64,000 bases of DNA from an uncultured Alphaproteobacteria bacterium (GTDB taxonomy: Bacteria; Pseudomonadota; Alphaproteobacteria; SP197). The notes beneath the pieces were generated by a model that searched no databases, was not told the DNA's origin, and saw only the letters and a list, made by a program, of their open reading frames with translations. The stretch spans positions 67,409-131,408 of the forward strand of contig CALSLK010000003.1 of NCBI GenBank assembly GCA_943787175.1, read 5' to 3'. This document shows positions 4,462-36,730 of the stretch, piece by piece; positions within the stretch are counted from its first letter, which is position 1; the number at the start of each line of letters is the position of its first letter. A program made the translations under genes and the position numbers.

Positions 4462-4477
4462 TGGAACGGAGTGTCTG

Positions 4478-7033: not shown

Positions 7034-7082
7034 CCAGCGTCCTCTGTGGTAGGAGCCGCTGATGAAATCTGGAGATCAGTAG

Positions 7083-8504
7083 ATGTTTATCGATGGTGCC
7101 TGGCAGGAGATGGAACGCCGGTTTGATATCACCAATCCGGCCGATGGGTCCGTGCTGGAAAGTATTGGTGACGGCGGAGCAGAAGAGGCGACGCAGGCAG
7201 TTGAAGCCGCGCATGCGGCATTTGCCGGCTGGGCCGGAACAACGGCCTATGAGCGGGCTGCTATTCTTTCGCGTGCCCACAAGATCATGCTGGAGCGCCG
7301 CGACGAACTTGCCCGCACCATGACGCTCGAGCAGGGCAAGCCCCTGCGCGCGGCAACCCTTGAAGTGGGCTACGGGGCAGATTTTCTGTCGTGGTTTGCC
7401 GAAGAAGCCAAACGCATCGAAGGACGCACCATTCCCTCGGCCCGGCGCGACCAGCGTTTTCTGGCGATCCGTCAGCCGGTCGGTGTGGTCGCTGCCATCA
7501 CGCCGTGGAATTATCCGGTCTCGATGATCACGCGCAAGGTGGCTCCGGCATTGGCGGCAGGCTGTACGGTTGTCCTGAAACCCGCTGAAGCCACGCCGCT
7601 GACGGCCGTGGCGATGATGCGTGTGTTCGAGGATGCGGGGGTGCCCAAGGGTGTTGTGAACCTGGTGACCTGCAGCGATCCCCGCCCGGTGGGTGATGTC
7701 TTTGTGAATCATCCCAAGGTGCGCAAGCTGACGTTCACGGGCTCGACGGCGGTCGGCAAGATGCTGGCCGGCAAGGCTGCGGCCAACATGAAGCGGGTGT
7801 CCTGCGAGCTGGGAGGCCATGCGCCGTTCCTGGTGTTCGAGGATGCCGATCCCGTGCATGCCGCCAAGGGCGCGCAACTGGTGAAATTCCTCAACACGGG
7901 GCAGGCCTGCATCAGCCCAAACCGGATCTTCGTACATCGTGCCAATCTTGAGCCATTTGTGGCGACGCTGACCGAACGTGTCGCCAAACTGAAGGTTGGT
8001 AGTGGACTGGATGAAGGTGTTGCCATTGGCCCGCTGGTCAACGAAGCAGCGGTCGAAAAGATGTCCAGGCAGGTCGAAGACGCACGTGATCGCGGTGCCG
8101 GTGTCGCCTGTGGCGGCAGCCGACTCACTGATGGAGGCCTGGATCGCGGGCACTTTTATGCGCCGACAGTTCTGACCGACGTCACGCCTGACATGCTCAT
8201 CTATCGTGAAGAAACCTTTGGCCCTATCGCGCCAATCATTCCCTTCGAGGATGAATCCGAAGTGATCGCCATGGCCAACGACACCGAATACGGTCTGGCG
8301 GCCTATATCTACACCCGTGATATCGCGCGGGCGTTCCGCACATTCGAGGCACTCGACTTCGGGATCATCGGGATCAACGACATCAATCCGACCTCTGCGG
8401 CGGCACCCTTTGGCGGCATGAAAGATAGTGGGCTAGGGCGCGAAGGCTCCCATGAGGGGCTGGACGAGTATCTCGAAACCAAACTGGGCGGCTTTGCAAT
8501 CTGA
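7083..8504 (+). CDS. gabD: NAD(P)-dependent aldehyde dehydrogenase, succinate-semialdehyde dehydrogenase-like
   Basis: 473 aa with ALDH-family hallmarks: a catalytic Cys region (GQACISPNR) and a Glu region (VSCELGGHAPFLVF). The best fit is GabD-type SSADH. Confidence 0.75.
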   Translation: MFIDGAWQEMERRFDITNPADGSVLESIGDGGAEEATQAVEAAHAAFAGWAGTTAYERAAILSRAHKIMLERRDELARTMTLEQGKPLRAATLEVGYGADFLSWFAEEAKRIEGRTIPSARRDQRFLAIRQPVGVVAAITPWNYPVSMITRKVAPALAAGCTVVLKPAEATPLTAVAMMRVFEDAGVPKGVVNLVTCSDPRPVGDVFVNHPKVRKLTFTGSTAVGKMLAGKAAANMKRVSCELGGHAPFLVFEDADPVHAAKGAQLVKFLNTGQACISPNRIFVHRANLEPFVATLTERVAKLKVGSGLDEGVAIGPLVNEAAVEKMSRQVEDARDRGAGVACGGSRLTDGGLDRGHFYAPTVLTDVTPDMLIYREETFGPIAPIIPFEDESEVIAMANDTEYGLAAYIYTRDIARAFRTFEALDFGIIGINDINPTSAAAPFGGMKDSGLGREGSHEGLDEYLETKLGGFAI

Positions 8505-8926
8505 TGTCTGATCAAACCGTGTTTGTCCTCGACCCCAGATTGGAAGGTGATTCCGTTCCTGTTTGCGACCTTGGCCTCTGTACGGTGCGACTGATGAACG
8601 ATGCACGGTTTCCCTGGGTCATCCTGGTTCCACGCATCGCAGGCCTGGTCGAACTGATCGACCTTTCGGAAGCGGATCGCCGAACGGTGACCGATGAAAT
8701 CGACCGTGTGACACGTGCGTTATCATCGCACACCAGCGCCGAGAAGATGAATGTGGCTGCGTTGGGCAACATGGTCCGTCAGCTTCATGTGCACGTGATT
8801 GCGCGATTTGCTGGTGATGCGGCATGGCCGGGGCCGATCTGGGGTGTGGGAACGGCGCAGGCCTATGTCGAAGGTGACAGAATGGAACGGGTGGATGCTT
8901 TGAAAGCAGCGCTAATCGGCGCGTGA
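8504..8926 (+). CDS. HIT (histidine triad) family protein
   Basis: 140 aa with the HxHxHxx motif (QLHVHVIAR). Confidence 0.7.
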   Translation: MSDQTVFVLDPRLEGDSVPVCDLGLCTVRLMNDARFPWVILVPRIAGLVELIDLSEADRRTVTDEIDRVTRALSSHTSAEKMNVAALGNMVRQLHVHVIARFAGDAAWPGPIWGVGTAQAYVEGDRMERVDALKAALIGA

Positions 8927-8958
8927 TGCCCAGGTTGAATCCGGTTTAGGGTGGCTTC

Positions 8959-10563
8959 ATGAAATCGGAAAACGAATACGACTACATTATTGTCGGTGCG
9001 GGGTCGGCGGGTTGCGTGCTTGCCAATCGATTGTCTGAGGATCCCGATTGTCGCGTCCTGGTTCTTGAGGCCGGGGCAAAAGACTGGAGCCCGATGATCC
9101 GTATGCCAATCGGTGAAATCTTCACCGTGGGCAGCCGCTATGACTGGAAATTCGTGTCAGAGCCGGAACCCATGCTTGATGGTACCCGTGTGGGCCTGCC
9201 CCGTGGGCGTGTGCTGGGTGGGTCTTCGTCCATCAATGGTCAGCTCTACGTGCGTGGCCATGAACGTGATTATGACGAGTGGGCGCAGCTTGGCTGCAGG
9301 GGCTGGTCGTTTGATGATGTCTTGCCCTGCTTCAAGAAGTCAGAGCGCTGGAAGGGGCCTCAGAGCGAGCGGCGCGGCACCGATGGCCCCTTGCGAACGG
9401 CGTTGGGGCGCTATGACAATCCGCTCTACAGCGCCTTTCTGAAAGCCGGTCAGGAGATCGGCTATTCCCTGACGGAAGATTTCAACGGCGATGTGCAGGA
9501 AGGTTTTGGTCTTTCCCAATATACTCATGCGCACTGGTTCCCGCTGCGTCACTCCTCGGCCAACGCCTATCTACGTCCGGCCAAGCGGCGCCGCAATGTC
9601 ACGGTCCTGACGGATGCGCGGGCACTGAAGCTGATTCTGGAGGGTGACACCTGCAAGGGCGTGTTGTGCGATGTGCGCGGGGAGATCAAGACGCTGCGTG
9701 CGACGCGCGAGGTCGTTCTGGCAGCAGGTGCCTATCAGTCACCCCAGCTCCTGATGTTATCGGGGATCGGTGACCCCGATCATCTGCGCGAGCTTGGCAT
9801 TGACGTGACCTGCCCGCTGTCTGGTGTCGGTGCCAACCTTCAGGATCACTTTGGTTCGATGGTGCAGCATCGGTGTACCCAGCCGATTACCTATCATCGC
9901 CTGCGCAATCCCCTGAAATTGGCTGCAGCGGTGCTGCAACTGGGTTTGACACGCAGCGGTCCGCTTGCCGTATTCCCGATGAATGCACAGGCCTATGTGA
10001 AATCCGACCCTGCGCTGGAACGTCCAGATCTGCAGTTCTTCATGTTCCCGGTCGCAGTCCAGCCTGACAGTGATGATCTGCACTACTCTGGCTACAGCGG
10101 GTACAACATCCATTGGGCGATTCTGCGCCCACGGTCCATCGGCTCGGTCAGACTGCGTTCAGCGTCGCCCTATGATGCGCCGGTCATCCGGCACAATTAT
10201 CTGGCTGATCCCGAGGATCGCAGGCTCAACCGTGAGGCCTTCCACATTGCGCGCCGAATTCATGCCGCCAGTGCATTCGATGCATATCGGGGTGAAGAGG
10301 TTGATCCGGGGCCCGAATGCATCAGCGATGCTGACATTGACCGTCATGTCGCCCGGTTCCATTCGACCCATTACCACCCGGCAGGAACCTGCAAGATGGG
10401 GATCGACGACCATGCCGTGGTTGATCCAAAGCTCAAGGTGCGGGGAATCGAAGGACTGCGCGTTGTCGATGCCTCGATCATGCCGCGTCTGGTTGGTGGT
10501 AATACGAATGCACCAACCATGATGATCGGCGAGCGTGCTGCCGAACTGATTGCACAGGGCTGA
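8959..10563 (+). CDS. GMC family oxidoreductase (choline dehydrogenase-like)
   Basis: N-terminal FAD fold DYIIVGAGSAGCVLANRLSE, GMC signatures and a C-terminal HPAGTCKMG motif. 534 aa. Confidence 0.85.
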   Translation: MKSENEYDYIIVGAGSAGCVLANRLSEDPDCRVLVLEAGAKDWSPMIRMPIGEIFTVGSRYDWKFVSEPEPMLDGTRVGLPRGRVLGGSSSINGQLYVRGHERDYDEWAQLGCRGWSFDDVLPCFKKSERWKGPQSERRGTDGPLRTALGRYDNPLYSAFLKAGQEIGYSLTEDFNGDVQEGFGLSQYTHAHWFPLRHSSANAYLRPAKRRRNVTVLTDARALKLILEGDTCKGVLCDVRGEIKTLRATREVVLAAGAYQSPQLLMLSGIGDPDHLRELGIDVTCPLSGVGANLQDHFGSMVQHRCTQPITYHRLRNPLKLAAAVLQLGLTRSGPLAVFPMNAQAYVKSDPALERPDLQFFMFPVAVQPDSDDLHYSGYSGYNIHWAILRPRSIGSVRLRSASPYDAPVIRHNYLADPEDRRLNREAFHIARRIHAASAFDAYRGEEVDPGPECISDADIDRHVARFHSTHYHPAGTCKMGIDDHAVVDPKLKVRGIEGLRVVDASIMPRLVGGNTNAPTMMIGERAAELIAQG

Positions 10564-10630
10564 TACGACCGTTGAACTGGGGTGTGGTTTTGATGCAAAA
10601 AGGCTTCTGGCAGGCAGGTGCGATTCCCAG

Positions 10631-11461
10631 ATGAGTTTGAAAGATCTCAGTTACGTCCGGCATGAATATCCCGCTTTGCAGCGTGTGATGTTCCGCATGC
10701 TGGAGCTGATAAGCGGTCAGGCGCGTTTCCTGCGCACCTATGGTGATCACTTTGATCCCTGGTTGGACGCGATGCGCAGGCGCGAGCCCTGGGCGTGGAA
10801 TGACGGCCTCGACCGTCTGGGCATCGAACGCCGCATTCATGGTGAGGCCTGGCCTGTCGATGTTCCCAAGGGTCAGCCGATCGTGATGGTGGCCAATCAT
10901 CCCTTCGGCGTGCTCGACGGAACCACGATGCTGGCCCTGGCAGAACATCTGGAGCGCCCCATCAAGGTTATGATCGACAAGGCTTTGCTGCGCTTTGAGC
11001 CGCTGCGCGAATACGCCCTGCCGGTTGATTTCACGGAAACACAGGAAGCCAGGCAGACGAATGTGGAGAGCCGGCGCGAAGCCCGCGCTTGCCTCAGTCG
11101 TGGCGAGACCATCATTGTCTTTCCTGCTGCCGGCGTTGCAATAGCGCGCAACCCCTTTGGTCCGTCTGTCGATCAGCCCTGGGGTCCGCTGACGGCCAGC
11201 CTGATTCTCGATACCCAGGCAACCACGGTGCCGGTGTTCTTTCCCGGGCGGTGCAGCACAATGTTTCACCTGTTTGGCCGCATCAAACTCGACCTGCGTC
11301 GAACGCTGATGGCCAGTGAATTTTTCCGGCGCTGTGGCACGCCCATCGACCTTCATGTCGGCAAGCCGATCCCGGCAGGCGAGCTTGAGGCGATGGACGA
11401 TCGAACTGCGATCATGCAGCACCTCCGTGCGGTCGTGCATCAGCTCGGTGGTTTGCGATAA
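10631..11461 (+). CDS. Lysophospholipid / PlsC-family acyltransferase (hemolysin-like)
   Basis: HX4D acyltransferase motif (VANHPFGVLDG) and a PAAG-like motif (VFPAAGVAIA). Confidence 0.6.
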   Translation: MSLKDLSYVRHEYPALQRVMFRMLELISGQARFLRTYGDHFDPWLDAMRRREPWAWNDGLDRLGIERRIHGEAWPVDVPKGQPIVMVANHPFGVLDGTTMLALAEHLERPIKVMIDKALLRFEPLREYALPVDFTETQEARQTNVESRREARACLSRGETIIVFPAAGVAIARNPFGPSVDQPWGPLTASLILDTQATTVPVFFPGRCSTMFHLFGRIKLDLRRTLMASEFFRRCGTPIDLHVGKPIPAGELEAMDDRTAIMQHLRAVVHQLGGLR

Positions 11462-11474
11462 TTCCATCTGCTGG

Positions 11475-11500
11475 CGCTGCATTAATACAGCGCCTGATGC
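11475..11500. repeat. Inverted repeat CTGCAT-N14-ATGCAG in the intergenic region upstream of the sigma-54 promoter
   Basis: A perfect 6-bp inverted repeat seen directly in the sequence. Candidate upstream activator site or weak terminator. Confidence 0.3.
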
Positions 11501-11608
11501 AGAAATTCATCGATCGTTGACGTTCTGAAGCACACACAAATCTGGCGTGTTTTCCTAAGTTGTTGAAACACAAGAGAAATGTGAGTGGTTCCCAAGGGCG
11601 CGGACTCT

Positions 11609-11624
11609 TGGCATGCTGCTTGCT
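11609..11624 (+). promoter_or_regulatory. Sigma-54 (RpoN) -24/-12 promoter TGGCAT-GCTGC-TTGCT
   Basis: Matches the TGGCAC-N5-TTGCW consensus with exact GG-N10-GC spacing, about 65 bp upstream of the first GS-like gene. A GAFTGA-containing enhancer-binding protein is encoded in the same gene string. Confidence 0.6.
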
Positions 11625-11689
11625 GTCTAATTGTACAACAAGCGCTAGCCGGCAATGTATCGGAGCGCAGGGAATGAGGGGCTGAGGGC

Positions 11690-13048
11690 ATGGCAGCGAA
11701 GAAGTCTGCGCGCAAAACGGCGGAAAAAGGTGCGGTCGCACGGCTGCGCAAGCAGGGCGTGAAAACCGTCCACGTTGCGATCCCTGATATGGATGGAAGT
11801 CTGCGTGAACGGCGCCTGGCGCTGGACGACGTGGAAACGGCATTCGGGCCCGGCGGAACCTTCGTCAACGTGATCCACAAGTGGGATACCGGTGAAAGTG
11901 TGATTGGCGAACCACCGTTCATCGGCGAGGCCACGTCGCTCGACTGGAACAGCGTGCGCGACTATCCCTTTGAAGACGATTCAGCCTTTGTCTTTGCAGA
12001 CTTTGCCGGTCCGTCGGCAGCGCTCAGCCCCCGCGAACTTCTCAAAACCCAGATTGCGCGTGCTGCAAAGATGGGTTTTGCAGTCAAGGCTGCCATGGAA
12101 TTCGAGTTTCATGTGTTGGATGAAACAGCCGAAGCCTGTCGCGCCAAGGGCTTCGAGAATGTTGACATGTTTGCCCCCGACAACCGGTGTTGGTCGACAC
12201 AGTCTGCGGCAATCTATGCCGATTATGTGGCCGATCTTGATGCTGTCCTGAAACATGCAGGTGTTGGCCTGTTCGGACTGGGCCTGGAGCTTGGGCCCGG
12301 CTGTTTCGAAGCGACCCTGCGCGCGACCGATCCGCTGCGTGCCGCCGACGATGCGGTGCTGTTCAAGACTTTCACCAAAGCGTTTTCGCGCAGGCTGGGT
12401 CTGACAGCGACCTTCATGGCCCAGCTCAGTGCCAACCATGCCGGTCTTTCCGGCCACGTTCATTTGTCACTGGCTGATGCCAGATCCGGCAAACCGGTTT
12501 TCCACGATGCAAAGGATGCCGATGGCATGAGTGCGACCATGCGTCATGCAGTTGGTGGCATTGTTGAACTGGCACCTGAAGCCCTGGCCATGGCTGCTCA
12601 TACCGCAAATGCTTATCGTCGGCTGACGCCGGGAAACTGGGCGCCCAAGACCGCGACCTGGGCCGTGCAGAACTATGCGGCTGCGGTGCGCGCCGTTCCG
12701 GCCCCTGCCAAGCTGGCGCGCTTGGAATTCCGATTGCCGGCTTCCGATACCAACCCCTATCTGGCATTGGCCCTGACGCTGGGGTCTGCGCTGCATGGTA
12801 TTGAGACCAAGGCCAAACTGCCTGCACCCATCACACGTGGTGGTCCCGATGAAACGCCGGAAGGCGTTCCGGGCCTTCCTCATGACTTGTTGGAAGCTGC
12901 GGACCGCCTGGAGGCCTGTAAGCCCGCACGCGCCATGTTCGGCGACGTGTTCATCGATCATTTTGTCGCCACACGCCGCCACGAAGAAGCGGTCATTCGC
13001 AAACATGTCAGCGCCTTTGAAAGGGCGCGTTACATCGAGGCCGTCTGA
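11690..13048 (+). CDS. Glutamine synthetase family protein (gamma-glutamyl-amine ligase-like), paralog 1
   Basis: 452 aa with a GS catalytic-domain pattern (AMEFEFHVLDE, GLELGPGCFEATL, NAYRRLTPGNWAPK). Lacks the GlnA adenylylation features. Confidence 0.8.
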   Translation: MAAKKSARKTAEKGAVARLRKQGVKTVHVAIPDMDGSLRERRLALDDVETAFGPGGTFVNVIHKWDTGESVIGEPPFIGEATSLDWNSVRDYPFEDDSAFVFADFAGPSAALSPRELLKTQIARAAKMGFAVKAAMEFEFHVLDETAEACRAKGFENVDMFAPDNRCWSTQSAAIYADYVADLDAVLKHAGVGLFGLGLELGPGCFEATLRATDPLRAADDAVLFKTFTKAFSRRLGLTATFMAQLSANHAGLSGHVHLSLADARSGKPVFHDAKDADGMSATMRHAVGGIVELAPEALAMAAHTANAYRRLTPGNWAPKTATWAVQNYAAAVRAVPAPAKLARLEFRLPASDTNPYLALALTLGSALHGIETKAKLPAPITRGGPDETPEGVPGLPHDLLEAADRLEACKPARAMFGDVFIDHFVATRRHEEAVIRKHVSAFERARYIEAV

Positions 13049-13065
13049 CGGTTTCTCGGGGGAGA

Positions 13066-14541
13066 TTGAACTTGACCAAAGATGTTGATGCCTATGCCGA
13101 GGCACCCGGCCGCGCGGATCTGATCAAGCAGGTTCGCGCCAAGATCGATGAGCTGGGAATTGATTTCGTTTACTATCAGTACATCTCGATCACCGGACGC
13201 ATCATGGGCAAGGCGGTGCCTGCGCCCCATTGGGAAACGATTGCCATGAAGGGCATTCAGACCTGGGTCGGTGGCCTCACCAACGTCTTGCCGAACCGTG
13301 CAGGAACCCTGCTCGGGTTTGATTCCAACGCCCATGAACTGGTCGCGCTGCCGGATCCGGAAACGTTCTGTCAGCTTCCCTGGAACAAGCGGACCGCGCG
13401 GGTTTATTGCACCGTCTTCAACGGTCGCGAGGAACCTGAAAACCCCGGCGCGTTCATGGATGAAGATTGCCGAGGCAATTTGCGGCGCGTGAACCAGAAG
13501 TTCATGGACGATCATGACGGTCTGCACATGCGCCACGGTTGCGAGCCCGAGATGGCTTGGCTGTACAAGCCTGAGGACGGGAAGTTGCAGGGTGGGCCGA
13601 CCAAGCCGTTGGCCTATCACATCGATCAGTTCGAAGAGCTTTCCAGCGTCTACATGAAGGTCATCGACTACGGTCAGGCCATGGGGCTCGACATGATCCA
13701 GGGCGATCACGAAGATGCGCCTGGCCAGCTGGAGCTCAACTTCACCTATGACGAAGCCCTGCGCACGGCAGATCGCCTGACGACCTATCGTCAGATCTGC
13801 GCCCAGGTCGCACGTGAAGAAGGCCTGATCGCCTGCTTCATGTCCAAGCCGTTCCTTGGTGTCACGGCCAATGGTTGCCATCACAACATCTCGTTGTGGC
13901 GCGGTGGTGAGGGTGAAGTCGTTTCGCATGTTGATGAGCCACGTCCGGGGATGGATGGCGTATTCGAACATCGTGTGGGCGGCGATAACCTGTTCTACAG
14001 CGGCCCCGACGACTGGATGCCAGGGCCAACCGGGCTCCAGGCCATCGGTGGCATCATGGAGCATCTCCCGGCTCTGACCGCGATTGGGTCATCGACCGTG
14101 AATTCCTATCGCCGCATGCTGGATCTTGGCATGTGGGCGCCGGTCTATGCCGATTGGGGTTTCCAGAACCGCACCACTGCGCTGCGTGTTTCCGCGCCGG
14201 GCCGCCTTGAGTACCGCGCGGTTGATTCCATGGTGAACCCGTACCTGATGGCCGCAACGCTGATCGGTGCCATGGACGATGGGATCAAACGCAACATTGA
14301 TCCCGGTGAACCGGAACAGCGCAACATCTATGACGCCATGGAAGCGGGCAAGGAAGTCAAACGCCTGCCCAAGTACTTTGGTGACGCGCTTGATGCGCTG
14401 GCTGCCGACGAGGTCGTGAAATCTGCGATGCCAGGCGGGCTCTACGATATCTATGACGAGTACAAGCGTGACGAATGGGATCGTTTCAATGCCGAGGTAA
14501 GCAGTTGGGATGTCGAAAAATATCTCGACTGCCTGCCATAA
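13066..14541 (+). CDS. Glutamine synthetase family protein (GlnA-like N-terminal beta-grasp plus catalytic domain), paralog 2
   Basis: 491 aa with GS-family motifs (HGCEPEMAWLY, QLELNFTYDEAL, NSYRRMLDLGMWAPVYADWGFQNR). TTG start with a GGGGGAG Shine-Dalgarno upstream. Confidence 0.8.
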   Translation: MNLTKDVDAYAEAPGRADLIKQVRAKIDELGIDFVYYQYISITGRIMGKAVPAPHWETIAMKGIQTWVGGLTNVLPNRAGTLLGFDSNAHELVALPDPETFCQLPWNKRTARVYCTVFNGREEPENPGAFMDEDCRGNLRRVNQKFMDDHDGLHMRHGCEPEMAWLYKPEDGKLQGGPTKPLAYHIDQFEELSSVYMKVIDYGQAMGLDMIQGDHEDAPGQLELNFTYDEALRTADRLTTYRQICAQVAREEGLIACFMSKPFLGVTANGCHHNISLWRGGEGEVVSHVDEPRPGMDGVFEHRVGGDNLFYSGPDDWMPGPTGLQAIGGIMEHLPALTAIGSSTVNSYRRMLDLGMWAPVYADWGFQNRTTALRVSAPGRLEYRAVDSMVNPYLMAATLIGAMDDGIKRNIDPGEPEQRNIYDAMEAGKEVKRLPKYFGDALDALAADEVVKSAMPGGLYDIYDEYKRDEWDRFNAEVSSWDVEKYLDCLP

Positions 14542-14553
14542 GAGGAGGACCGA

Positions 14554-15420
14554 ATGTTCGAACTGACCAAGGATCAGGTCACCAGTTTTCGGGACGACGG
14601 TTACGTCTTCGCCCAGAACATGGTCGATGAGTCGACCATTGAGACAGCGCACGAGAGCTTTGAGCGCATGTTCCGAGGTGAATTTTCGACCGGGGTTTTA
14701 CCCGATGAGGTGAACTGGCAGGAGGGCAAGAGCGACCCTTCGCTGACACGCCAGATCTGCTGCGGTTGGAGAGGCGATTATGACATTGCGCGCACAGTGC
14801 TTCGCGCTGATATCGGTCGTGCCTGTGCAACGCTTGCAGGCTGGCCGGGCGCCCGTGTCTTTGTCGATAATGTGCTTTGGAAACCGGCGGGAACGCGCTC
14901 ACTGGGTCTCCATCAGGATGCAGCCTATCTGCCCTGGATGAATCCTCAGGAAATGGTGTCCTGTTGGATCGCATTGGATGATACGACCGCCAATGGCGGG
15001 ACCATGGAAGTCGTGAAGGGCTCGCACAAGTGGGCTGTTTCCAAGCCCGAAGGCGAGTTTCATGGCCCCGAGGACTATCAAAAACAGATGCGTCTTGCTG
15101 CTGCCAACGAGGGTGTCGAAGATCCTGAGGTCGTTCCCATTGTGGTGAAGAAGGGTTCGGGATCCTTCCATCATGGTCGTACCTGGCATGGATCGGGCCC
15201 CAACGAGTCTGGAAATCCGCGTCGCTCACTGGTGGTGCACTGCATTTCATCGGAGACTCAGTTCGTTCCCGAACACATCGGTATTGGGGTTGGGCCGGTG
15301 TACGGTCGGTACATGCGCCGGGATGGCAACCCGGTGATGGACGAGGCCTATTTTCCGATCCTGTGGACCCAGGACGGTTATCGTACGCCTTGGGTCGATG
15401 ACTATATGGCTGCTGCCTGA
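14554..15420 (+). CDS. Phytanoyl-CoA dioxygenase (PhyH) family Fe(II)/2-oxoglutarate-dependent oxygenase
   Basis: HxD facial-triad motif (LGLHQDAAY) and distal His (GSFHHGRTWHGSGPN). 288 aa. Confidence 0.8.
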   Translation: MFELTKDQVTSFRDDGYVFAQNMVDESTIETAHESFERMFRGEFSTGVLPDEVNWQEGKSDPSLTRQICCGWRGDYDIARTVLRADIGRACATLAGWPGARVFVDNVLWKPAGTRSLGLHQDAAYLPWMNPQEMVSCWIALDDTTANGGTMEVVKGSHKWAVSKPEGEFHGPEDYQKQMRLAAANEGVEDPEVVPIVVKKGSGSFHHGRTWHGSGPNESGNPRRSLVVHCISSETQFVPEHIGIGVGPVYGRYMRRDGNPVMDEAYFPILWTQDGYRTPWVDDYMAAA

Positions 15421-16295
15421 TGACGAATGCAGGCATCACCGCTGACACCGTGACTCACGCGGGGCATGATGCCCTCGACAAAGCGTCACGTGCCGAGCTT
15501 GATGTTCTGCGCGGCATTCTCGAAACCTCGCGCGATGCCTGCTGGTGTATCGAATACGATGAGCCGGTCGATATGACCGCACCAGAGCCTGAGATTTTGC
15601 GGCAGTTTTTCGAGAACGTATCGTTCTGGCGTCTCTGCAACGACGCGATGGCAAAGCTCTACAAGTTGCCGGCGGGCCTCGATTTCAATGAGCAGTCCGT
15701 GCGGTTCTACTTTCCGCGTAACGGCGACAACGAGAACTTTGTGCGCCAACTGATACGCGCAAAATTCAACATGGATGACGTGCCCTCGGTTGATAAACGC
15801 CACGACGGCAGCGTGATGCATGCTCAAAACGATGTTCGTGCCGACATTCGTGATGGAGACCTGCACAGGCTGTGGGGCACGGTGCGTGATATCAGCGCCT
15901 TCAAACATGCCGAACAGGAGCTGACACGCCAGCTTGGTGCCATGCAGGATGTTCTGACTGCCTTGCCAGATCCGGTGCTGGTGATTGATGGTGAAGGTGT
16001 TGTCGAAGCAGCCAATCCGGCGCTTGAGGCATGCCTTGGGTTCGATCTCGATACGCTCCTTGGGCGTCACCTTGATGACTTGATTGATTCGAATGGAGGC
16101 TTTGCAGGCCTGGCATCGCGGCTGCGTCGGCTGGGAAGCCCGCTGCGCTGCGATGTTTCCATGGTCACGACTGCGGGTCATCGACGGGATGCCGAAATGA
16201 ACCTGGCACGGTCCAGCGATGGGGATGGTGCGGTGCGGTTTGTCGCAAGCCTGCGTTTGCGCGATGACCATCCATCGGTGGCGGCAATGTCATGA
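15420..16295 (+). CDS. PAS-domain sensor protein, possibly the N-terminal part of the downstream enhancer-binding protein
   Basis: PAS-like folds and no output domain. The stop overlaps the next start (ATGA). Confidence 0.55.
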   Translation: MTNAGITADTVTHAGHDALDKASRAELDVLRGILETSRDACWCIEYDEPVDMTAPEPEILRQFFENVSFWRLCNDAMAKLYKLPAGLDFNEQSVRFYFPRNGDNENFVRQLIRAKFNMDDVPSVDKRHDGSVMHAQNDVRADIRDGDLHRLWGTVRDISAFKHAEQELTRQLGAMQDVLTALPDPVLVIDGEGVVEAANPALEACLGFDLDTLLGRHLDDLIDSNGGFAGLASRLRRLGSPLRCDVSMVTTAGHRRDAEMNLARSSDGDGAVRFVASLRLRDDHPSVAAMS

Positions 16296-17707
16296 GATTT
16301 CGCGGGTTCGACGTCAGCCATCACGATGACTCCGTTCCGGCCGCTGATGTCCTGGCTTCCATGGGAAGCGCCGGTCTTGGCGCTATCGCGGAGGCCCTGC
16401 CTGACGGCCTGGTTGCGTTCGATGCTTCCGGCGTTGTGGTGCTCTACAACCAGGCCGCAGAATCGATCCATGATGTCGCACGCGACAGGGCCCTGGATGC
16501 ACGCCTGGAAGAACTGGTCGAGGACAGTTCACTCGATTGTGCCGAACTTTCCGAAGCTGTGTTGGCGAAACGGCGTAGCGACCTTTTTGCGCGAACCAGT
16601 GATGGTCGATCCATTCTGGTTTCGGTGCGGCCCGTGCGCGATCGCCGTCGCGAAGCAATGCTGACGCTGGTGGTTTTGCGCGATCTGGACGTAATCGACC
16701 ATCAACGTGATGCAGGTAACCGCCATGGCGCAGCTGAGACCTTCCGGTTTCGTGCCAGCAGCTCTCTGGGAACAAGCGTTGATCGCGACCTCCTTCTGGA
16801 AGGCGACCTTGAACGTGCTGTTGGATTTGGCATCCGTGCCATGGAAAGACGTGCGCGGGTTTTGATCACGGGCGAAACCGGTGTTGGCAAGACTGCGATT
16901 GCGCGCCACTTGCACGATGCTGTGTGTGGTTCGGCCCGGCCGTTCGTCCAGGTCAATTGCGGCAGCATTCCTGAGACCCTGTTTGAATCCGAGATGTTCG
17001 GCTATGAGCGTGGCGCATTCACCGGTGCATTGCAGGGCGGCAAGAAGGGCCTGATCGAATCTGCGGCAGGTGGCACCCTGTTCCTGGATGAAGTGGGCGA
17101 GATACCGCTGCAATGTCAGGCCAAACTCCTGAAGTTTCTTGAGGATGGATCGGTTCAACGTGTGGGTGGTGCGACGTCGCGTCGTGTCGATGTGCGCATT
17201 CTTGCAGCGACCAACCGTGATCTCGAGACCATGATCGGCGCAGGCTCCTTCCGGCGTGACCTGTTCCATCGCCTGAAGGTGTTGACCATCGATGTTCCTC
17301 CGCTGCGTGAGCAGCCTGAACTCATAGAGCCATTGATTGCCAGGTTGCTCGACCGCGTGAACGCCGGCCGAAAACCGGTACTGCGACTCGATGATGCCTG
17401 CCGCGCCAGGCTGGGGACCTATTCCTATCCCGGAAACATTCGCGAGCTGGCAAACATCCTGGAGCGCCTGTCTGTCATCTGTGATTCGATTGCGACCGTT
17501 GCGGATCTTGAAGAAGGCGCTGTGCCTGTCACCACCGGTTCGTCGATCGATGACACGATGCCGTTGAAAGATCGGGTGCGGGCTTACGAACATGGTCTGA
17601 TTGACGAAGCCGTGAGGCGTCATGGCAGCAAACGCAAGGCCGCAAGAGCGTTGGGAGTCGACATTGGTACGGTGGTTCGCAAGACGCAAGGGGGAAGGCG
17701 GATATGA
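16292..17707 (+). CDS. Sigma-54-dependent transcriptional activator (PAS, AAA+ sigma-54 interaction domain, Fis-type HTH)
   Basis: Walker A GETGVGKT, GAFTGA motif (ERGAFTGA), sigma-54 interaction region and a C-terminal HTH (KRKAARALGVDIGTVVRK). Confidence 0.85.
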   Translation: MRFRGFDVSHHDDSVPAADVLASMGSAGLGAIAEALPDGLVAFDASGVVVLYNQAAESIHDVARDRALDARLEELVEDSSLDCAELSEAVLAKRRSDLFARTSDGRSILVSVRPVRDRRREAMLTLVVLRDLDVIDHQRDAGNRHGAAETFRFRASSSLGTSVDRDLLLEGDLERAVGFGIRAMERRARVLITGETGVGKTAIARHLHDAVCGSARPFVQVNCGSIPETLFESEMFGYERGAFTGALQGGKKGLIESAAGGTLFLDEVGEIPLQCQAKLLKFLEDGSVQRVGGATSRRVDVRILAATNRDLETMIGAGSFRRDLFHRLKVLTIDVPPLREQPELIEPLIARLLDRVNAGRKPVLRLDDACRARLGTYSYPGNIRELANILERLSVICDSIATVADLEEGAVPVTTGSSIDDTMPLKDRVRAYEHGLIDEAVRRHGSKRKAARALGVDIGTVVRKTQGGRRI

Positions 17708-17912
17708 CACGCTTCACTTGCATGTCTGACATGAACAACACCCATGAATTTGTGAATTCGGGTGGCGGCGCCCCGATGGGTCTGATGGCCCGACTAACTG
17801 CGCCGTATCCTATCCCCCCGAACGGCGTTAGAAAGGTTCTCTTGCGCCGCCGGGGTACTTCACCCCACCAAAGAGCGGTGGTAACAATGGGCAATGGAGG
17901 AGGCTTTAAGCC

Positions 17913-18983
17913 ATGAAGACGATTGGTACCAAACTGGGAACGGCAGTTGCTGCCGCGGCCCTCGCTGTCACAGGCTTTGCCGGTGCAGCACATGCCGAAG
18001 GTGAGCTCAATCTGCTTACCTGGGAAGGTTACACCGACGAGAGCTTCGTTTCGGTGTTTGAGGCGAATACCGGCTGCAAGGTCACGCCGACCTATGTTGG
18101 CTCGAACGACGAGTTTCCGGCCAAGCTGGCCGGCGGCGGCGGCGTCTATGATCTAGTCTCGCCTTCGGTCGATACCACGACCATTCTGATGAAGGCTGGC
18201 CTGGTCGAGGAGATCGATGTCAGCCGACTGGAGAACTGGGATCAGGTGTTCCCTCAGTTCAGCAGTCATAGCGGTGTGAACCATGATGGTGGCGTCTATG
18301 GCGTACCCTATACGTGGGGTGCCATTCCGTTCATGTACCGTGCCGACTCGTTCGACGAAGCCCCGACATCGATCATGCAGCTCTGGGAAGATGAATCCCT
18401 CAGCGGCAAGGTCAGCCTGTGGGATGACAAGACCAACATCTATGTTGTTGCGCGCATGATCTATGGCAACGATGTCAACGTCTATGATCTCTCTGATGAT
18501 CAGTTGGCAGCAGTCCGCGACAAGCTCATCGAACTCAAGCCTGCGATCCGCAAGTACTGGTCGACGGCCGGTGAACTTGTGAACCTCTATGCCAATGGCG
18601 AGGTCACGATCTCCAACACCTGGGGCGGCTATCAGTCTGCTCTGTTGGCCGATGAAGGCATCGAGATGATCGAATTCATCCCAGCCGAGAACGCCGATGG
18701 CTGGGCTGATGCCTGGCAGATCGTTGCTGGTTCGCCCAATGAGGATTGTGCCTATCAGTGGCTCAACTTCTCGATCAGCCCTGAAGGTCAGTGTGGCGTT
18801 GTTGGAATCACCGGTTATTCCGGCTCCAACCCGACCGCGCTTGGCACCTGCAAGAGCGATGAAGAAATGATGATGCTGCACATGGACGACTTCGGCTATC
18901 TCGATAGCCTTGTCCTGTGGCAGGAGCCTGCTCGTGTTGATGCCTACATCAACACCTGGAATGCCGTGAAGGCCGCGCAGTAA
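17913..18983 (+). CDS. ABC transporter periplasmic substrate-binding protein, PotD/PotF (polyamine/opine) family
   Basis: Signal peptide (AAALAVTGFAGAAHA) and PotD-like fold signatures. 356 aa. Confidence 0.8.
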   Translation: MKTIGTKLGTAVAAAALAVTGFAGAAHAEGELNLLTWEGYTDESFVSVFEANTGCKVTPTYVGSNDEFPAKLAGGGGVYDLVSPSVDTTTILMKAGLVEEIDVSRLENWDQVFPQFSSHSGVNHDGGVYGVPYTWGAIPFMYRADSFDEAPTSIMQLWEDESLSGKVSLWDDKTNIYVVARMIYGNDVNVYDLSDDQLAAVRDKLIELKPAIRKYWSTAGELVNLYANGEVTISNTWGGYQSALLADEGIEMIEFIPAENADGWADAWQIVAGSPNEDCAYQWLNFSISPEGQCGVVGITGYSGSNPTALGTCKSDEEMMMLHMDDFGYLDSLVLWQEPARVDAYINTWNAVKAAQ

Positions 18984-19073
18984 GCGACCTTCTACCAACG
19001 TTCGGGCCGGTTCGGCTGATCTGAACCGGCCCGTAACGTTCTCTTTCTCTTGGACGAACTGCGGTGTGACGTG

Positions 19074-20207
19074 ATGGCCAACATTCTTGAACTCAGTAAC
19101 CTGACCAAGACGTTTCGCGGTGGCGTGGTCGCTGTCGACAACATCTCGCTCGATATCAGCGAGGGTGAGTTTCTGACCATGCTGGGCCCGTCTGGCTGTG
19201 GCAAAACAACCACACTGCGCATGATCGGCGGCTTCGAGTATCCAGACAGTGGCTCGATCCTGCTCGATGGCCAGGACGTGACCGACAATCCGCCCTATCG
19301 GCGCCCGGTCAACATGATGTTTCAGGATTTCGCGCTGTTCCCTCATATGAATTCTGCCGAGAACATTGGTTATGGACTAAAGATTGCAGGCGTTTCCCGT
19401 GGCGAGATTGACGAGCGCGTCAAACGCATGCTCGACATGATCGAATTGCCTCTGATGGGTGATCGGCTGCCTTCTCAGCTCTCTATCGGCCAGCGCCAGC
19501 GGATCGCTTTGGCGCGCGCGCTGATCAACAATCCTCGTGTTCTCCTTCTGGATGAGCCGATGTCGGCGCTTGACGCCAAGCTGAAAGAGACGATGCAGAT
19601 CGAGTTGCGGCACATTCACGACCGCATTGGCATTACCTTCATCATGGTGACCCATGATCAGACAGAATCCATGATCATGTCGGATCGCATCATTGTCATG
19701 CATGCCGGTAGGATCGAGCAGATCGGTTCGGCTACGGAACTCTATGATCACCCCCACAGCGCCTATGTCGCCGAATTCCTGGGTACCTCCAACATGATTC
19801 CCGCGACGGTCACCAAGGATGGCTCCAGCCTGATGGCACGGGCTGGCGACCTCTCCATTGCGGTTGATGACGATGGCTCGGGAATTGTGGATGGCTCCGT
19901 GCGTTCGCTTTTCATCAGGCCCGAAAAGATCCGACTACTTGGTGATGGCGGTGTCGCCTATGACGGCGCCAGCGTGTTCACCGGGAAGGTGAAAGAACTG
20001 TTTTTCAGCGGTAACGCAGTGCGGATCGACCTTGACGTTGGTGCTGACCGTCCCGTCATGGTGCACCATCAGCTCGACACCGGCCTGGAACAGGCCGGCC
20101 TGCCCACGATTGGTGAAACGGCAACCTGTTCGGTGCGTCCTGAAACTGTGCGTCTGTTTGATATTGCAGAGGTCGCAGCGGTGGAAGCTGAAGGGGTTGG
20201 CGCATGA
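19074..20207 (+). CDS. ABC transporter ATP-binding protein, PotA/PotG-like
   Basis: Walker A GPSGCGKTT, ABC signature LSIGQRQRIALARAL, Walker B LLLDEP and a C-terminal TOBE-like regulatory domain. Confidence 0.85.
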   Translation: MANILELSNLTKTFRGGVVAVDNISLDISEGEFLTMLGPSGCGKTTTLRMIGGFEYPDSGSILLDGQDVTDNPPYRRPVNMMFQDFALFPHMNSAENIGYGLKIAGVSRGEIDERVKRMLDMIELPLMGDRLPSQLSIGQRQRIALARALINNPRVLLLDEPMSALDAKLKETMQIELRHIHDRIGITFIMVTHDQTESMIMSDRIIVMHAGRIEQIGSATELYDHPHSAYVAEFLGTSNMIPATVTKDGSSLMARAGDLSIAVDDDGSGIVDGSVRSLFIRPEKIRLLGDGGVAYDGASVFTGKVKELFFSGNAVRIDLDVGADRPVMVHHQLDTGLEQAGLPTIGETATCSVRPETVRLFDIAEVAAVEAEGVGA

Positions 20208-21073
20208 AGCATAAAACCCGGCGGACCCTGAACTTCTGGGCGCTGTTCTCTGCCCCTGCGTTGTGGTGGGGAACAGTCCTGTTGGTGCCGTATCTGATCA
20301 TGATGTCGATCAGTTTCTACTCGCGCCAGTTCCCGTTTCATGTGCCGGACTTCCAGTTTGGCAACTACGCCATCCTGCTGGAAGACTCACAGTATTATGA
20401 CGTTCTGGTGCGCAGTCTGTGGATTTCGCTGTCTGTCTCGTTGAGCGCATTTGTTCTGAGTTACCCGTTGGCCTACTTCCTGGCATTCAAGGTCCGTTCG
20501 GAACGCATGCGCCTGTTCCTGTATACGGCAACGATTGTTCCGTTGTGGGTGAGTTATCTGCTGCGCGCTTATACGTGGAAGACCATTTTAGGCAGCGAGG
20601 GCATTCTCAATTCATTCCTGATGTGGACCGGGATCATCTCGGAACCTTCGACGATCTTTCTATACAACCAGGGCGCCATGATTGTGACGATGGCTTACAT
20701 CTTCACGCCCTTCATGGTGATGCCGATCTATGCATCGTTGGAAAAGATTCCGGTCAGCTTGATCGAAGCGTCCAAGGACCTGGGCGCCCCAAGGTTCAAG
20801 ACCTTCCTGAAGATCACCTTGCCGCTTTCCATGCCGGGTGTTCTGGCAGGCTTCACCTTCACGTTCGGCCTGTCGATTGGTGACTTCATTTCGCCGATCC
20901 TGGTCGGTGGCCCATACTCGAACATGATTGCCAATGTCGTGGCGACGCAGTTTGGTATGGCGATGAATTGGCCGCTGGGTTCTGCGCTGGGCGTCGTCCT
21001 GCTCTTTATCGTTCTGGGCGTTATCACTGCTTCCGACAAGCTTGAGCGCGTCGGCCGATTGAACATGGGTTAG
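20204..21073 (+). CDS. ABC transporter permease (PotB-like)
   Basis: Six TM segments with an EAA-like loop (IEASKDLGAPRFKTFLKITLP). Overlaps the ATPase stop. Confidence 0.8.
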   Translation: MKHKTRRTLNFWALFSAPALWWGTVLLVPYLIMMSISFYSRQFPFHVPDFQFGNYAILLEDSQYYDVLVRSLWISLSVSLSAFVLSYPLAYFLAFKVRSERMRLFLYTATIVPLWVSYLLRAYTWKTILGSEGILNSFLMWTGIISEPSTIFLYNQGAMIVTMAYIFTPFMVMPIYASLEKIPVSLIEASKDLGAPRFKTFLKITLPLSMPGVLAGFTFTFGLSIGDFISPILVGGPYSNMIANVVATQFGMAMNWPLGSALGVVLLFIVLGVITASDKLERVGRLNMG

Positions 21074-21084
21074 GGGAGAGCATC

Positions 21085-21927
21085 ATGGCTGTTACTAGTA
21101 TGAACGGTGTGGGCTTGCGCAAACGACCCATGGATATGGGAACGACCGGCCTTGGCGTTGCGGCGACGTGTGTGCTGGCGTTCCTTTACCTGCCCATCAT
21201 CACGCTGATCATCTTCAGCTTCAATTCCAGTTCGATCACACGACTGCCGCTCGAGAGTTTCACCCTCGATTGGTATGTGAAGGCGCTTTCCAACAACGAT
21301 CTGATGACCGCTGTCTGGAACTCCGTGCTGGTGGGGTCGGCTGCGGTCGTGATCTGTCTGGCGATCGGTATTCCCACAGCGCTTGCGCTCGACCGATACG
21401 ACTTTCCGGGCAAAACGGTGTTCCGCCGTCTGGTCATTCTTCCGATCACGCTGCCAGGTCTGATTACGGGCGTTTCCATGCTGACCTTCTTCCGGTCAGT
21501 CGATATCCAGCTCACGATCTGGACGGTTATCATTGGTCACGGCACAGCGTTGACTGCCATCGTGGTCACAAATGTCTTTGCGCGCCTGCAACGGTTTGAC
21601 CGGCGTATCGAGGAGGCCTCGGCTGATCTCGGAGCGACACCGCTGAAAACCTTCTGGTTCGTGACGCTGCCCAACATCCGTGCGGCCATCATCGGCTCGG
21701 CCATGATTTCGTTCACGCTGTCGTTCGATGAACTTCCCGTGACGTTTTTCCTGACCGGGCGCGACAATACGTTGCCGATGTATATCTGGTCGGTCATCCG
21801 TCGTGGCATCACCCCGGAGATCAACGCCATTGGCACGATCATCGTGGTCGTCTCGATCCTGTTGATTCTGATTTCGGTGCTGTTGATGCACAGCGATAAC
21901 CAGAAGGCCGGGCCGGTTAAACCCTGA
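21085..21927 (+). CDS. ABC transporter permease (PotC-like)
   Basis: TM-rich with an EAA-like loop (IEEASADLGATPLKTFWFVTLP). Confidence 0.8.
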   Translation: MAVTSMNGVGLRKRPMDMGTTGLGVAATCVLAFLYLPIITLIIFSFNSSSITRLPLESFTLDWYVKALSNNDLMTAVWNSVLVGSAAVVICLAIGIPTALALDRYDFPGKTVFRRLVILPITLPGLITGVSMLTFFRSVDIQLTIWTVIIGHGTALTAIVVTNVFARLQRFDRRIEEASADLGATPLKTFWFVTLPNIRAAIIGSAMISFTLSFDELPVTFFLTGRDNTLPMYIWSVIRRGITPEINAIGTIIVVVSILLILISVLLMHSDNQKAGPVKP

Positions 21928-26034: not shown

Positions 26035-26282
26035 TCGATTTCCGCGGGCTCTGCACTGACGCTGCCGTCAGCGCCCAGGCGGATCTTTTCGACCTTGTCC
26101 TGAGCCTCGCGCAACTTGGTCTCGCAATGCTGTTTCAGGGCGGCGCCGCGTTCATAAGCACCGATGGCGTCATCCAGTTTGGCTTGCCCGCCTTCGAGAC
26201 GTTCCACGATAGTCTCAAGCTCGGCCAGAGCCTCTTCGAAGCTCATCTTCTTGATGTCATCGTGACCTGCTGCCTTGGTCAT
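26031..26282 (-). CDS. xseB: Exodeoxyribonuclease VII small subunit
   Basis: 83 aa XseB-like protein (SFEEALAELETIVERLE...). Confidence 0.85.
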   Translation of the reverse strand: MTKAAGHDDIKKMSFEEALAELETIVERLEGGQAKLDDAIGAYERGAALKQHCETKLREAQDKVEKIRLGADGSVSAEPAEIE

Positions 26283-32822: not shown

Positions 32823-32825
32823 GGA

Positions 32826-33977: not shown

Positions 33978-34063
33978 GCTCCAGTCCATCACACGTGGTG
34001 GTTGAAATGCAAACCGCCGGACCCTTGCGAGCCCGGCGGTTCCGGTAACCTCTGCGTGACGCC

Positions 34064-36399: not shown

Positions 36400-36475
36400 G
36401 GCGCTATCGTGCATGAGCACAGCATGGAACCCAAGCAGGAATTGCCGAATTCATGTCGTGCTTTGCACCGAACAC

Positions 36476-36721: not shown

Positions 36722-36730
36722 GGTTGGTCC

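Follow-up and report, generated by a model that had tools for sequence, protein, structure and literature searches.

Methylated amines account for a sizeable share of the dissolved organic nitrogen in the sea, and climate-active aerosols form from them. Some amines are handled by ligation to glutamate: in the AtdA/TdnQ aniline system glutamylation comes first and an oxygenase then breaks the C-N link, and the Ipu isopropylamine pathway consists of the IpuC ligase, a P450 hydroxylase and the IpuF hydrolase. The 1-naphthylamine system is reported to be similar, with a glutamine synthetase (GS)-like ligase, NpaA1, that glutamylates the amine and an oxygenase that then acts on the gamma-glutamyl amide (PMC11335346). 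Models of methylated-amine breakdown use tmm, tdm, dmmDABC, gmaS, mgs and mgd, and surveys take gmaS as the marker; the rarity of dmmDABC has been interpreted as a metabolic bottleneck (PMC5520151). The gmaS-mgsABC operon of the N-methylglutamate (NMG) pathway is also documented (PMC4543880). The locus described here, at positions 11475-21927 of a 64,000-nucleotide (64-kb) stretch of contig CALSLK010000003.1 from an uncultured alphaproteobacterium (this whole stretch is called the window below), combines two GS-like ligases, a PhyH-family oxygenase, a sigma-54 activator and an ATP-binding cassette (ABC) importer.

We tentatively propose, with somewhat less than even confidence, that this locus obtains nitrogen from small methylated amines through import, ligation by one of the ligases (GS2) and demethylation by the PhyH oxygenase to glutamine and formaldehyde. 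An earlier note on this DNA had suggested an amine or polyamine route with a hydroxylation step. The amine part of that suggestion stands, polyamines are disfavoured and small methylated amines are the most likely substrates; the oxygenase step is kept as well, and it is best read as oxidative N-demethylation with release of formaldehyde. The evidence, drawn from sequence comparison, consists of the gene content and its conservation, the co-variation of the promoter and its upstream sites, the active site of GS2, which resembles that of GmaS, and the alternation of PhyH with mgsABC behind this ligase. From it we infer the substrates, the products, the order in which ligase and oxygenase act and the roles of the other ligase (GS1), the substrate-binding protein (SBP) and a protein with PAS domains only. 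The elements of the locus are the following.

Positions 11475-11492 and 11495-11512, forward strand: CGCTGCATTAATACAGCG and TGATGCAGAAATTCATCG, palindrome matches, putative upstream activating sequences (UAS) for the activator.
Positions 11609-11624, forward strand: TGGCATgctgcTTGCT, predicted sigma-54 -24/-12 promoter, 66 nt before the GS1 ATG.
Positions 11690-13048, forward strand: GS1, GS-like ATP-dependent ligase, 452 aa (Gln-synt_C, 268 bits).
Positions 13066-14541, forward strand: GS2, predicted GmaS-type ligase, 491 aa (Gln-synt_C, 262 bits).
Positions 14554-15420, forward strand: PhyH-family Fe(II)/2-oxoglutarate (2OG) oxygenase, 288 aa (PF05721, 99.6 bits).
Positions 15420-16295, forward strand: PAS-only protein, 291 aa (PAS_4/PAS_9).
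Positions 16292-17707, forward strand: sigma-54 activator, or enhancer-binding protein (EBP), with PAS, AAA+ and helix-turn-helix (HTH) domains (Sigma54_activat, PF00158, 203 bits; HTH_50; PAS_4).
Positions 17708-17912: gap of 205 bp between the EBP and SBP genes.
Positions 17913-18983, forward strand: SBP, periplasmic, PotD/YdcS family (SBP_bac_8).
Positions 19050-20207, forward strand: ABC ATPase, PotA-like (ABC_tran, TOBE_2), syntenic in orthologous loci.
Positions 20204-21073, forward strand: ABC permease 1 (BPD_transp_1), syntenic, 59-98% identity.
Positions 21085-21927, forward strand: ABC permease 2 (BPD_transp_1), syntenic, the last gene of the unit.

A convergent FtsJ/TlyA-like gene lies directly beyond permease 2. 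The earlier note had placed all nine genes, the GAFTGA activator and the -24/-12 site correctly, and the calls of open reading frames (ORFs) and domains bear out its same-strand series of two GS-family genes, PhyH, PAS sensor and activator. The PotD/PotA/PotB/PotC-like importer is also present, behind a gap of 205 bp where 206 had been given. No locus protein reaches a curated equivalog cut-off. The defining tests for the Puu, methylamine (NMG) and Ipu layouts all failed here, which agrees with the claim that the locus follows none of them. Full-text literature searching gave no description of the locus, in keeping with its earlier standing as apparently undescribed, and none of the papers found connects PhyH oxygenases with gmaS or with GS-like ligases.

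In the proposed route, the PotD/YdcS-family importer would bring in the methylated amine, and GS2 would join monomethylamine to the gamma-carboxyl of glutamate with ATP, giving gamma-glutamylmethylamide (N5-methylglutamine). The PhyH oxygenase would then hydroxylate the N-methyl group of this amide, and the carbinolamide would break down to glutamine and formaldehyde. The amine nitrogen would thus land as the amide of glutamine, and N-methylglutamate synthase and dehydrogenase would therefore not be needed. GS1 presumably provides this oxygenase with another gamma-glutamyl amide, one made from dimethylamine or from some other small alkylamine. The PAS-AAA+-HTH activator, acting on the palindromic UAS and probably together with the PAS-only protein, would drive the sigma-54 promoter, with an additional sigma-70-like promoter for the transporter genes in the clade of the window. 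The chemistry has precedents: the removal of N-methyl groups by Fe/2OG enzymes goes by way of hydroxymethyl intermediates and sets formaldehyde free (PMC12508155), and a PHYHD1-type demethylase is a precedent for the same reaction (PMC12709175). Four features of the data are explained together by demethylation of the ligase product, namely the constant company of ligase and PhyH, the alternation of PhyH with mgsABC, the fusion with formaldehyde genes and the existence of the module as a stand-alone unit.

Concerning the first step, GS2 was aligned to Rhodovulum GmaS (RhGmaS, PDB 7cql), and Tyr147, Gln175, Asp177, Glu179, Glu186 and Asn188 are all identical; Wang et al. assign these RhGmaS residues to the methylamine pocket and to catalysis. 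GS2 shows the motif DHEDA, where true GS has HHEVA, and a Trp (Trp300 of RhGmaS) at the position of the catalytic flap Glu of GS. The pocket and catalytic residues, including the DHEDAPG motif, are invariant across 34 GS2 orthologues. GS2 also carries an insertion of about 40 aa and remains below the cut-offs of the curated models for GlnT/GmaS (TIGR03105, 300.6 vs 469.6 bits), GlnA type I (TIGR00653, 244.9 vs 429.15 bits) and PuuA (NF045547, 231 vs 650). A relative that is itself linked to Mgs genes (L091) reaches about 315 bits with TIGR03105.

The genomic company of the GS2 family points in the same direction. The family search found relatives 64-67% identical, some of them from cultured cyanobacteria. 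In L091 (9001-13674), the GS2 relative has GntR and Amt genes to one side of it and GATase_6/7, GXGXG and Glu_synthase genes to the other, and this three-gene signature is that of the N-methylglutamate synthase MgsABC. In a metagenome scan seeded with the GS2 family (query P0225), 110 non-redundant loci had room downstream of the ligase gene. In 56 of them the first gene in the same direction after GS2 is MgsA-like, in 43 it is PhyH, in one SoxB and in 10 another gene, frequencies that are biased because the locus sets were retrieved via PhyH or GS2. In the 56 loci the ligase gene sits between a divergent GntR gene and mgsABC, often with Amt and SoxBDAG-like (Mgd-type) genes nearby; these Mgs-linked relatives are 64-67% identical to the GS2 of the window and 74-85% to the scan query. 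GS2 is supported as a predicted GmaS-type glutamate-methylamine ligase because the pocket residues of GmaS are kept and its relatives stand directly upstream of mgsABC in these 56 loci.

Comparisons of related loci covered flanks of up to 10 kb, and within them Mgs genes are absent from all 43 GS2-PhyH loci. The 64-kb window holds no Mgs, Sox, Amt or ADH3 homologue either (Mgs and Sox were searched by tblastn). In a neighbour-joining tree, built without support values, the PhyH-linked GS2 proteins form two basal clades within which the Mgs-linked clade nests; in the same unsupported tree, the cyanobacterial and Mgs-linked proteins together form the sister clade of the one that holds the window's GS2. 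The GS2-type ligases of about 490 aa (L091-L171) are annotated merely as 'glutamine synthetase', though they are next to mgsABC in 56 loci. Annotation-based counts of gmaS and of methylamine users may be too low because this family fails the curated GlnT/GmaS model.

Regarding the distribution of the whole cluster, a genome scan seeded with PhyH gave 80 loci, onto which the window proteins were mapped. The order GS1-GS2-PhyH occurs in about 32 non-redundant loci, and the full order GS1-GS2-PhyH-PAS-EBP-SBP-ATPase-permease-permease in at least a dozen, L173 among them. The full layout reaches 7-Mb Rhodospirillales metagenome-assembled genomes (MAGs) at just 48-64% protein identity and is also present in distant MAGs of Hyphomicrobiales and unclassified Pseudomonadota. 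Variants are also found, in which PhyH and the transporter are accompanied by GS2 alone (L014, GS2-PhyH-ABC) or by a GS1-like ligase alone (L086), or in which an ABC-PhyH pair has no ligase nearby (L062). The cluster is thus widely conserved, but the supposed relationship to Rhodobacterales was not borne out, the nearest relatives being labelled as marine Alphaproteobacteria/Rhodospirillaceae MAGs. PhyH itself has more than 2000 relatives, nearly all of them in metagenomes and MAGs; carriers in culture exist as well, namely Rhodospirillaceae bacterium N.6G and Gloeocapsopsis sp. IPPAS B-1203. OZ242015.1, OY770023.1 and JBJXHM01 are examples of complete genomes that contain GS2-PhyH. A protein search of a plasmid collection from cultured strains found no close PhyH homologue, with all matches below 33%. 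In Rhodospirillales versions (L003/L040, L041, L046, L052 and L023; for example L003, 17655-20873), an AMP-binding, acyl-CoA-synthetase-like gene follows the nine-gene unit; in L003 this gene is followed in turn by ureE, ureF and ureG, urease accessory genes that hint at a neighbourhood concerned with nitrogen scavenging.

The third protein of the unit is a PhyH-family Fe(II)/2OG oxygenase with a predicted double-stranded beta-helix fold. PF05721 gives 99.6 bits against a cut-off of 22; H120-x-D122, H206/H212 and R223/R224, which make up the HxD...H triad and the 2OG-binding Arg, are invariant; and the AlphaFold2 model (pLDDT 90) matches the folds of SnoN, SnoK, MysH and PhyH with probability 1.0. 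The substrate is not readable from the structure because the best structural matches (SnoK, SnoN, MysH and EvdO2) are at most 24% identical and act on unrelated substrates. These same matches recall that PhyH-family enzymes are common in natural-product pathways, and the module could in principle make a hydroxylated metabolite or osmolyte of the N5-alkylglutamine type; this is very improbable, as the module lacks other biosynthetic genes, goes together with an ABC importer and a sigma-54 activator and has catabolic and C1 neighbours elsewhere. Ectoine hydroxylase (EctD) was also considered and rejected, with 25.2 bits against the TIGR02408 cut-off of 336.5; the JGI label 'ectoine hydroxylase-related' is generic.

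The company that PhyH keeps in other genomes bears on what it may act upon. It clusters with four GS-like lineages, namely GS1, GS2, a gammaproteobacterial type and canonical GlnT/GmaS (TIGR03105), and in L084 it overlaps GS2 by 4 bp. One alphaproteobacterial clade has six loci in which a frmA-like ADH3 gene and a fghA-like esterase D gene stand immediately before GS1-GS2-PhyH, and in L084 there are zero bases between the esterase gene and GS1. From their Pfam domains, protein lengths and sequence motifs, we take ADH3 and esterase D to be formaldehyde-detoxification enzymes of the S-hydroxymethylglutathione-dehydrogenase and S-formylglutathione-hydrolase types. Moreover, a full-length gene of the trimethylamine dehydrogenase (TMADH) family directly follows PhyH in L172 (844 bits, E 6e-253 to PDB 1djn). 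SoxBDAG-like genes, of the heterotetrameric sarcosine-oxidase type, lie alongside the PhyH locus in L001 and L137, and further PhyH loci contain GbcA-like Rieske, BHMT-like, DAO, carnitine-dehydrogenase-like (3HCDH) and BKACE genes.

Two of these neighbourhoods were described as a whole. The L172 cluster (4405-18500) comprises AsnC, a GbcA-like Rieske protein, a third GS-like ligase, a MetX-like hydrolase, GS1, GS2, PhyH, TMADH and a Peripla_BP_6-type ABC system, and it appears to be devoted to methylated amines. Gloeocapsopsis sp. IPPAS B-1203 (L088, 697-10503) has a PuuD-like C26 hydrolase, a canonical GlnT/GmaS (594.8 bits) and a PhyH protein 45.5% identical to that of the window; close by, with apparently mobile genes (Uma2, AAA ATPase) in between, lie an SBP_bac_3 gene and an orthologue of GS2 (66.7%).

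Several of these observations could also be accommodated by a different order of events, in which PhyH acts upstream of the ligase and converts free dimethylamine or another N-methyl compound to monomethylamine and formaldehyde, GS2 traps the monomethylamine and the NMG genes lie elsewhere. The adjacent TMADH-family gene in L172 would suit such a step, and so would L062, with transporter and PhyH and no ligase nearby. In the same way, PhyH homologues (49-51% identity) divergent from complete gmaS-mgsABC sets would there add a step and not duplicate one, and dmmDABC is often absent from marine bacteria (PMC5520151). However, no Mgs or Mgd gene was found in the window or in the sampled sequence of the 43 GS2-PhyH loci, and the ligase product would therefore have no local onward route. 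PhyH is, besides, consistently clustered with ligases of four lineages and often translationally coupled to GS2. Fe/2OG enzymes usually require a binding handle on their substrate, and a free C1-C2 amine offers none. This order of events is accordingly considered unlikely.

The demethylation of gamma-glutamylmethylamide by PhyH also has points against it. In four NMG clusters (L113, L118, L126 and L128), a GntR-EamA-PhyH operon is divergent from DAO-gmaS-mgsABC (in L126 at 3855-6428), an arrangement that agrees with PhyH as an accessory or upstream enzyme at least as well as with PhyH as a substitute. The reading of the PhyH substrate comes from gene neighbourhood throughout; within it, the link with the formaldehyde operon comes from one clade and that with TMADH from one locus, and the 43 to 56 split is not an unbiased frequency, the loci having been sampled through PhyH or GS2. 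Mgs-linked and cyanobacterial GS2 loci have Amt and not a PotD-type importer, and we know of no precedent for a PotD-type importer of methylamine. The PuuD-like hydrolase of Gloeocapsopsis suggests that a hydrolytic step is needed in at least some versions. Finally, N-hydroxymethyl intermediates can be so persistent that a lyase is required: when the lyase MgdL is absent, the half-life of the MgdH product exceeds 1 h (PMC12508155). A lyase is not evident in this locus.

The locus is supported as being under predicted sigma-54 control by its own activator. The EBP has GAFTGA at residues 241-246, a Walker A motif (GETGVGKT) at 194, a C-terminal HTH and an N-terminal PAS domain, and by these domain and motif criteria it is a bacterial enhancer-binding protein. 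The PAS-only protein co-occurs with it in orthologous loci and is likely a co-sensor. The near-consensus RpoN site reported earlier at 11609-11624 is present, and transcription is predicted to start some 12 nt beyond 11623. The pattern alone is not above chance, since one-mismatch -24/-12 matches in the window number 13 against 7.4 expected, but every one of the 14 non-redundant activator-carrying loci with upstream sequence has TGGCA[CT]-N5-[TCG]TGC at 36-112 nt before GS1. Loci without the activator lack the site, with two exceptions: L007 has kept the promoter and lost PAS/EBP, and the contig of L070 ends within the PAS gene.

The UAS behave likewise. The palindrome TG[CA]TGCA-N4-TGCA[GT]CA occurs upstream of GS1 in 15 of the 16 orthologous loci (background 0.03 per 350 bp), about 100-140 bp upstream of the -24/-12 site. 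In the window, the pair lies about 100-135 bp upstream of the -24 element, with a weaker third copy at 11404-11421. Judged by position, this UAS-plus-promoter arrangement is the classic geometry of a sigma-54 activator. The site has GG at -24, GC at -12, canonical spacing, an upstream UAS and conservation, and the comparative evidence that the promoter is real is good because the -24/-12 site and the UAS co-vary with the activator.

The expression of the transporter seems to vary among the clades. No locus has a sigma-54 site before the SBP gene. In many loci the gap between EBP and SBP is just 15-47 bp, and the transporter is therefore probably co-transcribed there. In the longer gap of the window, the following conserved elements are found.

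Positions 17766-17834, forward strand: conserved elements of the EBP-SBP gap, with a hairpin in which 17766-17771 pairs with 17800-17805, followed by a -35/-10-like pair at 17806-17834.

The hairpin shows compensatory G-C to A-U changes. The sigma-70-like pair reads TATCCT-N17-TAGAAA in the window and TTGACC/TTTCAT-N16/17-TACAAN in relatives, and the block is common to nine related loci, some without EBP. This probably reflects a separate basal sigma-70-like promoter for the transporter in the clade of the window. Terminator and sigma-70 consensus scans gave nothing above chance. An Rfam search over 6-24 kb found no match and no known riboswitch in the gap. A novel leader RNA or riboswitch was considered for the gap and set aside, as the blocks fit a hairpin plus a sigma-70-like -35/-10 pair.

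GS1 belongs to a small family found in MAGs only (641 matches), and its nearest solved structure is 5dm3, an uncharacterised Chromohalobacter protein. The motifs for metal, ATP and glutamate (ExE, LELGPGCFE, HxH, NxYRR and RxExR) are conserved across 33 orthologues. GS1 lacks Asp177 and Asn188 of GmaS and has a Trp at the flap position and the LELGPGCFE motif. All its scores are below the cut-offs (TIGR00653, 172.4 vs 429.15; TIGR03105, 181.9 vs 469.6; NF045547, 163.3 vs 650). By its residues, GS1 is a catalytically intact ligase of another lineage, predicted to be active because the metal, ATP and glutamate motifs are kept and to have an amine pocket different from that of GmaS because Asp177 and Asn188 are missing.

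The SBP is far below the equivalog cut-offs of its nearest characterised relatives (YdcS, 139.9 vs 725; PotD, 98.4 vs 582; PotF, 93.9 vs 636). Its pocket was compared by pairwise alignment with an engineered PotF variant: W37, Y40, W244, D278 and Y314 are kept, F276 is replaced by W and E185 by N, and D247 falls in a gap. The motifs TWEGY, LWDDK, NTWGGY and GWADAW are invariant in 25 orthologues. Such a Trp-rich cage with one acidic anchor may suit a small mono-cation better than a diamine, which would be weak evidence for the proposed substrates.

Other genes lie upstream of the UAS, in a block that spans 7083-11461.

Positions 7083-8504: aldehyde dehydrogenase (ALDH), similar to succinate-semialdehyde dehydrogenase (SSADH) and betaine-aldehyde dehydrogenase.
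Between the ALDH and GMC genes: HIT-family gene.
Positions 8959-10563: GMC oxidoreductase, which passes the 'choline dehydrogenase' subfamily cut-off (614.8 vs 605).
After the GMC gene: OlsF/GlsA-like acyltransferase.

The SSADH-like ALDH and the GMC oxidoreductase are located where the earlier note had seen them, immediately upstream. Their membership, together with that of the HIT gene, in the core of the locus was rejected: they are upstream of the promoter and UAS, the acyltransferase gene lies between, and synteny extends to the four closest relatives only (L004-L007). They are probably outside the unit because of their position upstream of the promoter and this limited synteny. The ALDH-HIT-GMC trio resembles an alcohol-to-acid module.

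The ALDH, the SBP and GS1 are among the grounds for a polyamine or primary-amine route, in which GS1 and GS2 would glutamylate the amine, PhyH would hydroxylate the carbon adjacent to the amide to give glutamine and an (amino)aldehyde, and the ALDH would oxidise the latter. The nearest characterised relatives of the SBP are indeed YdcS, PotF and PotD, GS1 is nearest to the 5dm3/PuuA-like branch, the upstream ALDH resembles SSADH and aminobutyraldehyde dehydrogenases, and a gene of the histone-deacetylase family, presumably acetylpolyamine-amidohydrolase-like, lies inside the L086 cluster. Nevertheless, the scores of 94-140 bits for the SBP against cut-offs of 582-725, the missing E185 and D247 of PotF and the values of 163 (GS1) and 231 (GS2) against the PuuA cut-off of 650 argue against it. 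The locus has no PuuB- or PuuD-type gene, as no DAO (PuuB-type) or Peptidase_C26 (PuuD-type) domain was found between 11.4 and 22 kb, and the ALDH, upstream of the sigma-54 promoter and syntenic in the closest relatives only, does not reach the PuuC cut-off (290.8 vs 850). The associations with GmaS, Mgs, formaldehyde genes and TMADH all indicate C1 amines. A polyamine route is for these reasons rather improbable. The window has its own gene of the histone-deacetylase family at 26279-27226 on the reverse strand, with homologues of 60-77% identity in L007, L008, L014 and L033 and of 36% in the L086/L039 cluster; its recurrence may reflect nothing more than synteny, or else a loose link in function.

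The GMC alcohol oxidase and the ALDH would also fit a route like that of Ipu, in which an alkylamine is glutamylated, PhyH hydroxylates a remote carbon and an unlinked gamma-glutamyl hydrolase frees the hydroxylated amine or amino alcohol. The PuuD-like C26 hydrolase that stands beside a GlnT-type ligase and PhyH in Gloeocapsopsis speaks for such a route, but the proteobacterial loci have no hydrolase, and a route of this kind leaves the fusion with formaldehyde-detoxification genes and the presence of PhyH in the position of mgsABC unexplained. We regard it as still less probable than the polyamine route.

About 10 kb downstream of the locus, the window contains a second catabolic set of the amine/betaine type (31701-41678), with a DAO FAD oxidase (31701-32822), a class-III aminotransferase, an amidase and a PALP-CBS enzyme. 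A Rieske oxygenase in this set (32826-34250, reverse strand) is a distant relative of the GbcA-like ones in other PhyH loci. Some genes of the window are split or incomplete: an AcrB-type gene is divided into two ORFs (28698-29939 and 30216-31664), a CBS/DUF294 nucleotidyltransferase gene is split or overlapping (5764-6516 and 6419-7033), and an SSF symporter (1964-3130) and the class-III aminotransferase (34438-35469) look truncated. These are probably frameshifts from assembly errors, or pseudogenes.

With respect to its novelty, the locus would be a new combination within gamma-glutamylation-dependent amine catabolism, with a first step known from the NMG pathway. A more specific claim is possible and clearly more speculative: a two-enzyme route from monomethylamine to glutamine by GS2 and PhyH without N-methylglutamate, with GS1 for dimethylamine, the first dedicated importer of methylamine of the ABC type and a dedicated sigma-54 activator. 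If true, one oxygenase would strip both methyl groups of dimethylamine in turn, and uncultured marine Alpha- and Gammaproteobacteria could get round the 'DMA (dimethylamine) bottleneck' without DmmDABC. Direct conversion of gamma-glutamyl(methyl)amides to glutamine and formaldehyde by PhyH, if real, would mean an unrecognised O2- and 2OG-dependent branch of the methylated-amine cycle in uncultured marine bacteria, and a new type of reaction for PhyH-family oxygenases.

Compared with the known systems, the locus shares parts with each. Like Puu/Pau, it has GS-like ligases and an ABC importer of the PotD/PotF family; unlike them, its proteins miss the cut-offs for PuuA, PotD and PotF widely and the SBP lacks two acidic anchors of PotF. 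As in Ipu, a small alkylamine would be gamma-glutamylated and the gamma-glutamyl amide then hydroxylated, but this locus has neither a P450 system nor a hydrolase. Hydroxylation is proposed here at the carbon attached to nitrogen, and the product would therefore fall apart to glutamine and an aldehyde, which is not the case in Ipu. With the MgdH/MgdL methylguanidine system it would share the hydroxylation of a heteroatom-bound methyl group followed by the loss of formaldehyde; the two are unlike in substrate and context, an MgdL-like lyase is not evident here, and PMC12508155 does not call MgdH a PhyH-family enzyme.

The arylamine systems (AtdA/TdnQ and NpaA1) have the same logic of glutamylation followed by oxygenation. 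Their oxygenase, a Rieske dioxygenase of several components, attacks an aromatic ring, whereas here a single PhyH-family Fe/2OG enzyme would act on what are probably C1-C2 alkylamines, and regulation and transport differ too. The NMG pathway (GmaS, MgsABC, MgdABCD) probably has an identical first step, given the active-site signature of GmaS in GS2. It differs in that MgsABC and MgdABCD are absent from the locus and from the 64-kb window as a whole; this locus has instead the second ligase GS1, an ABC importer and not Amt, sigma-54 with its EBP and not GntR, and PhyH in the position of mgsABC.

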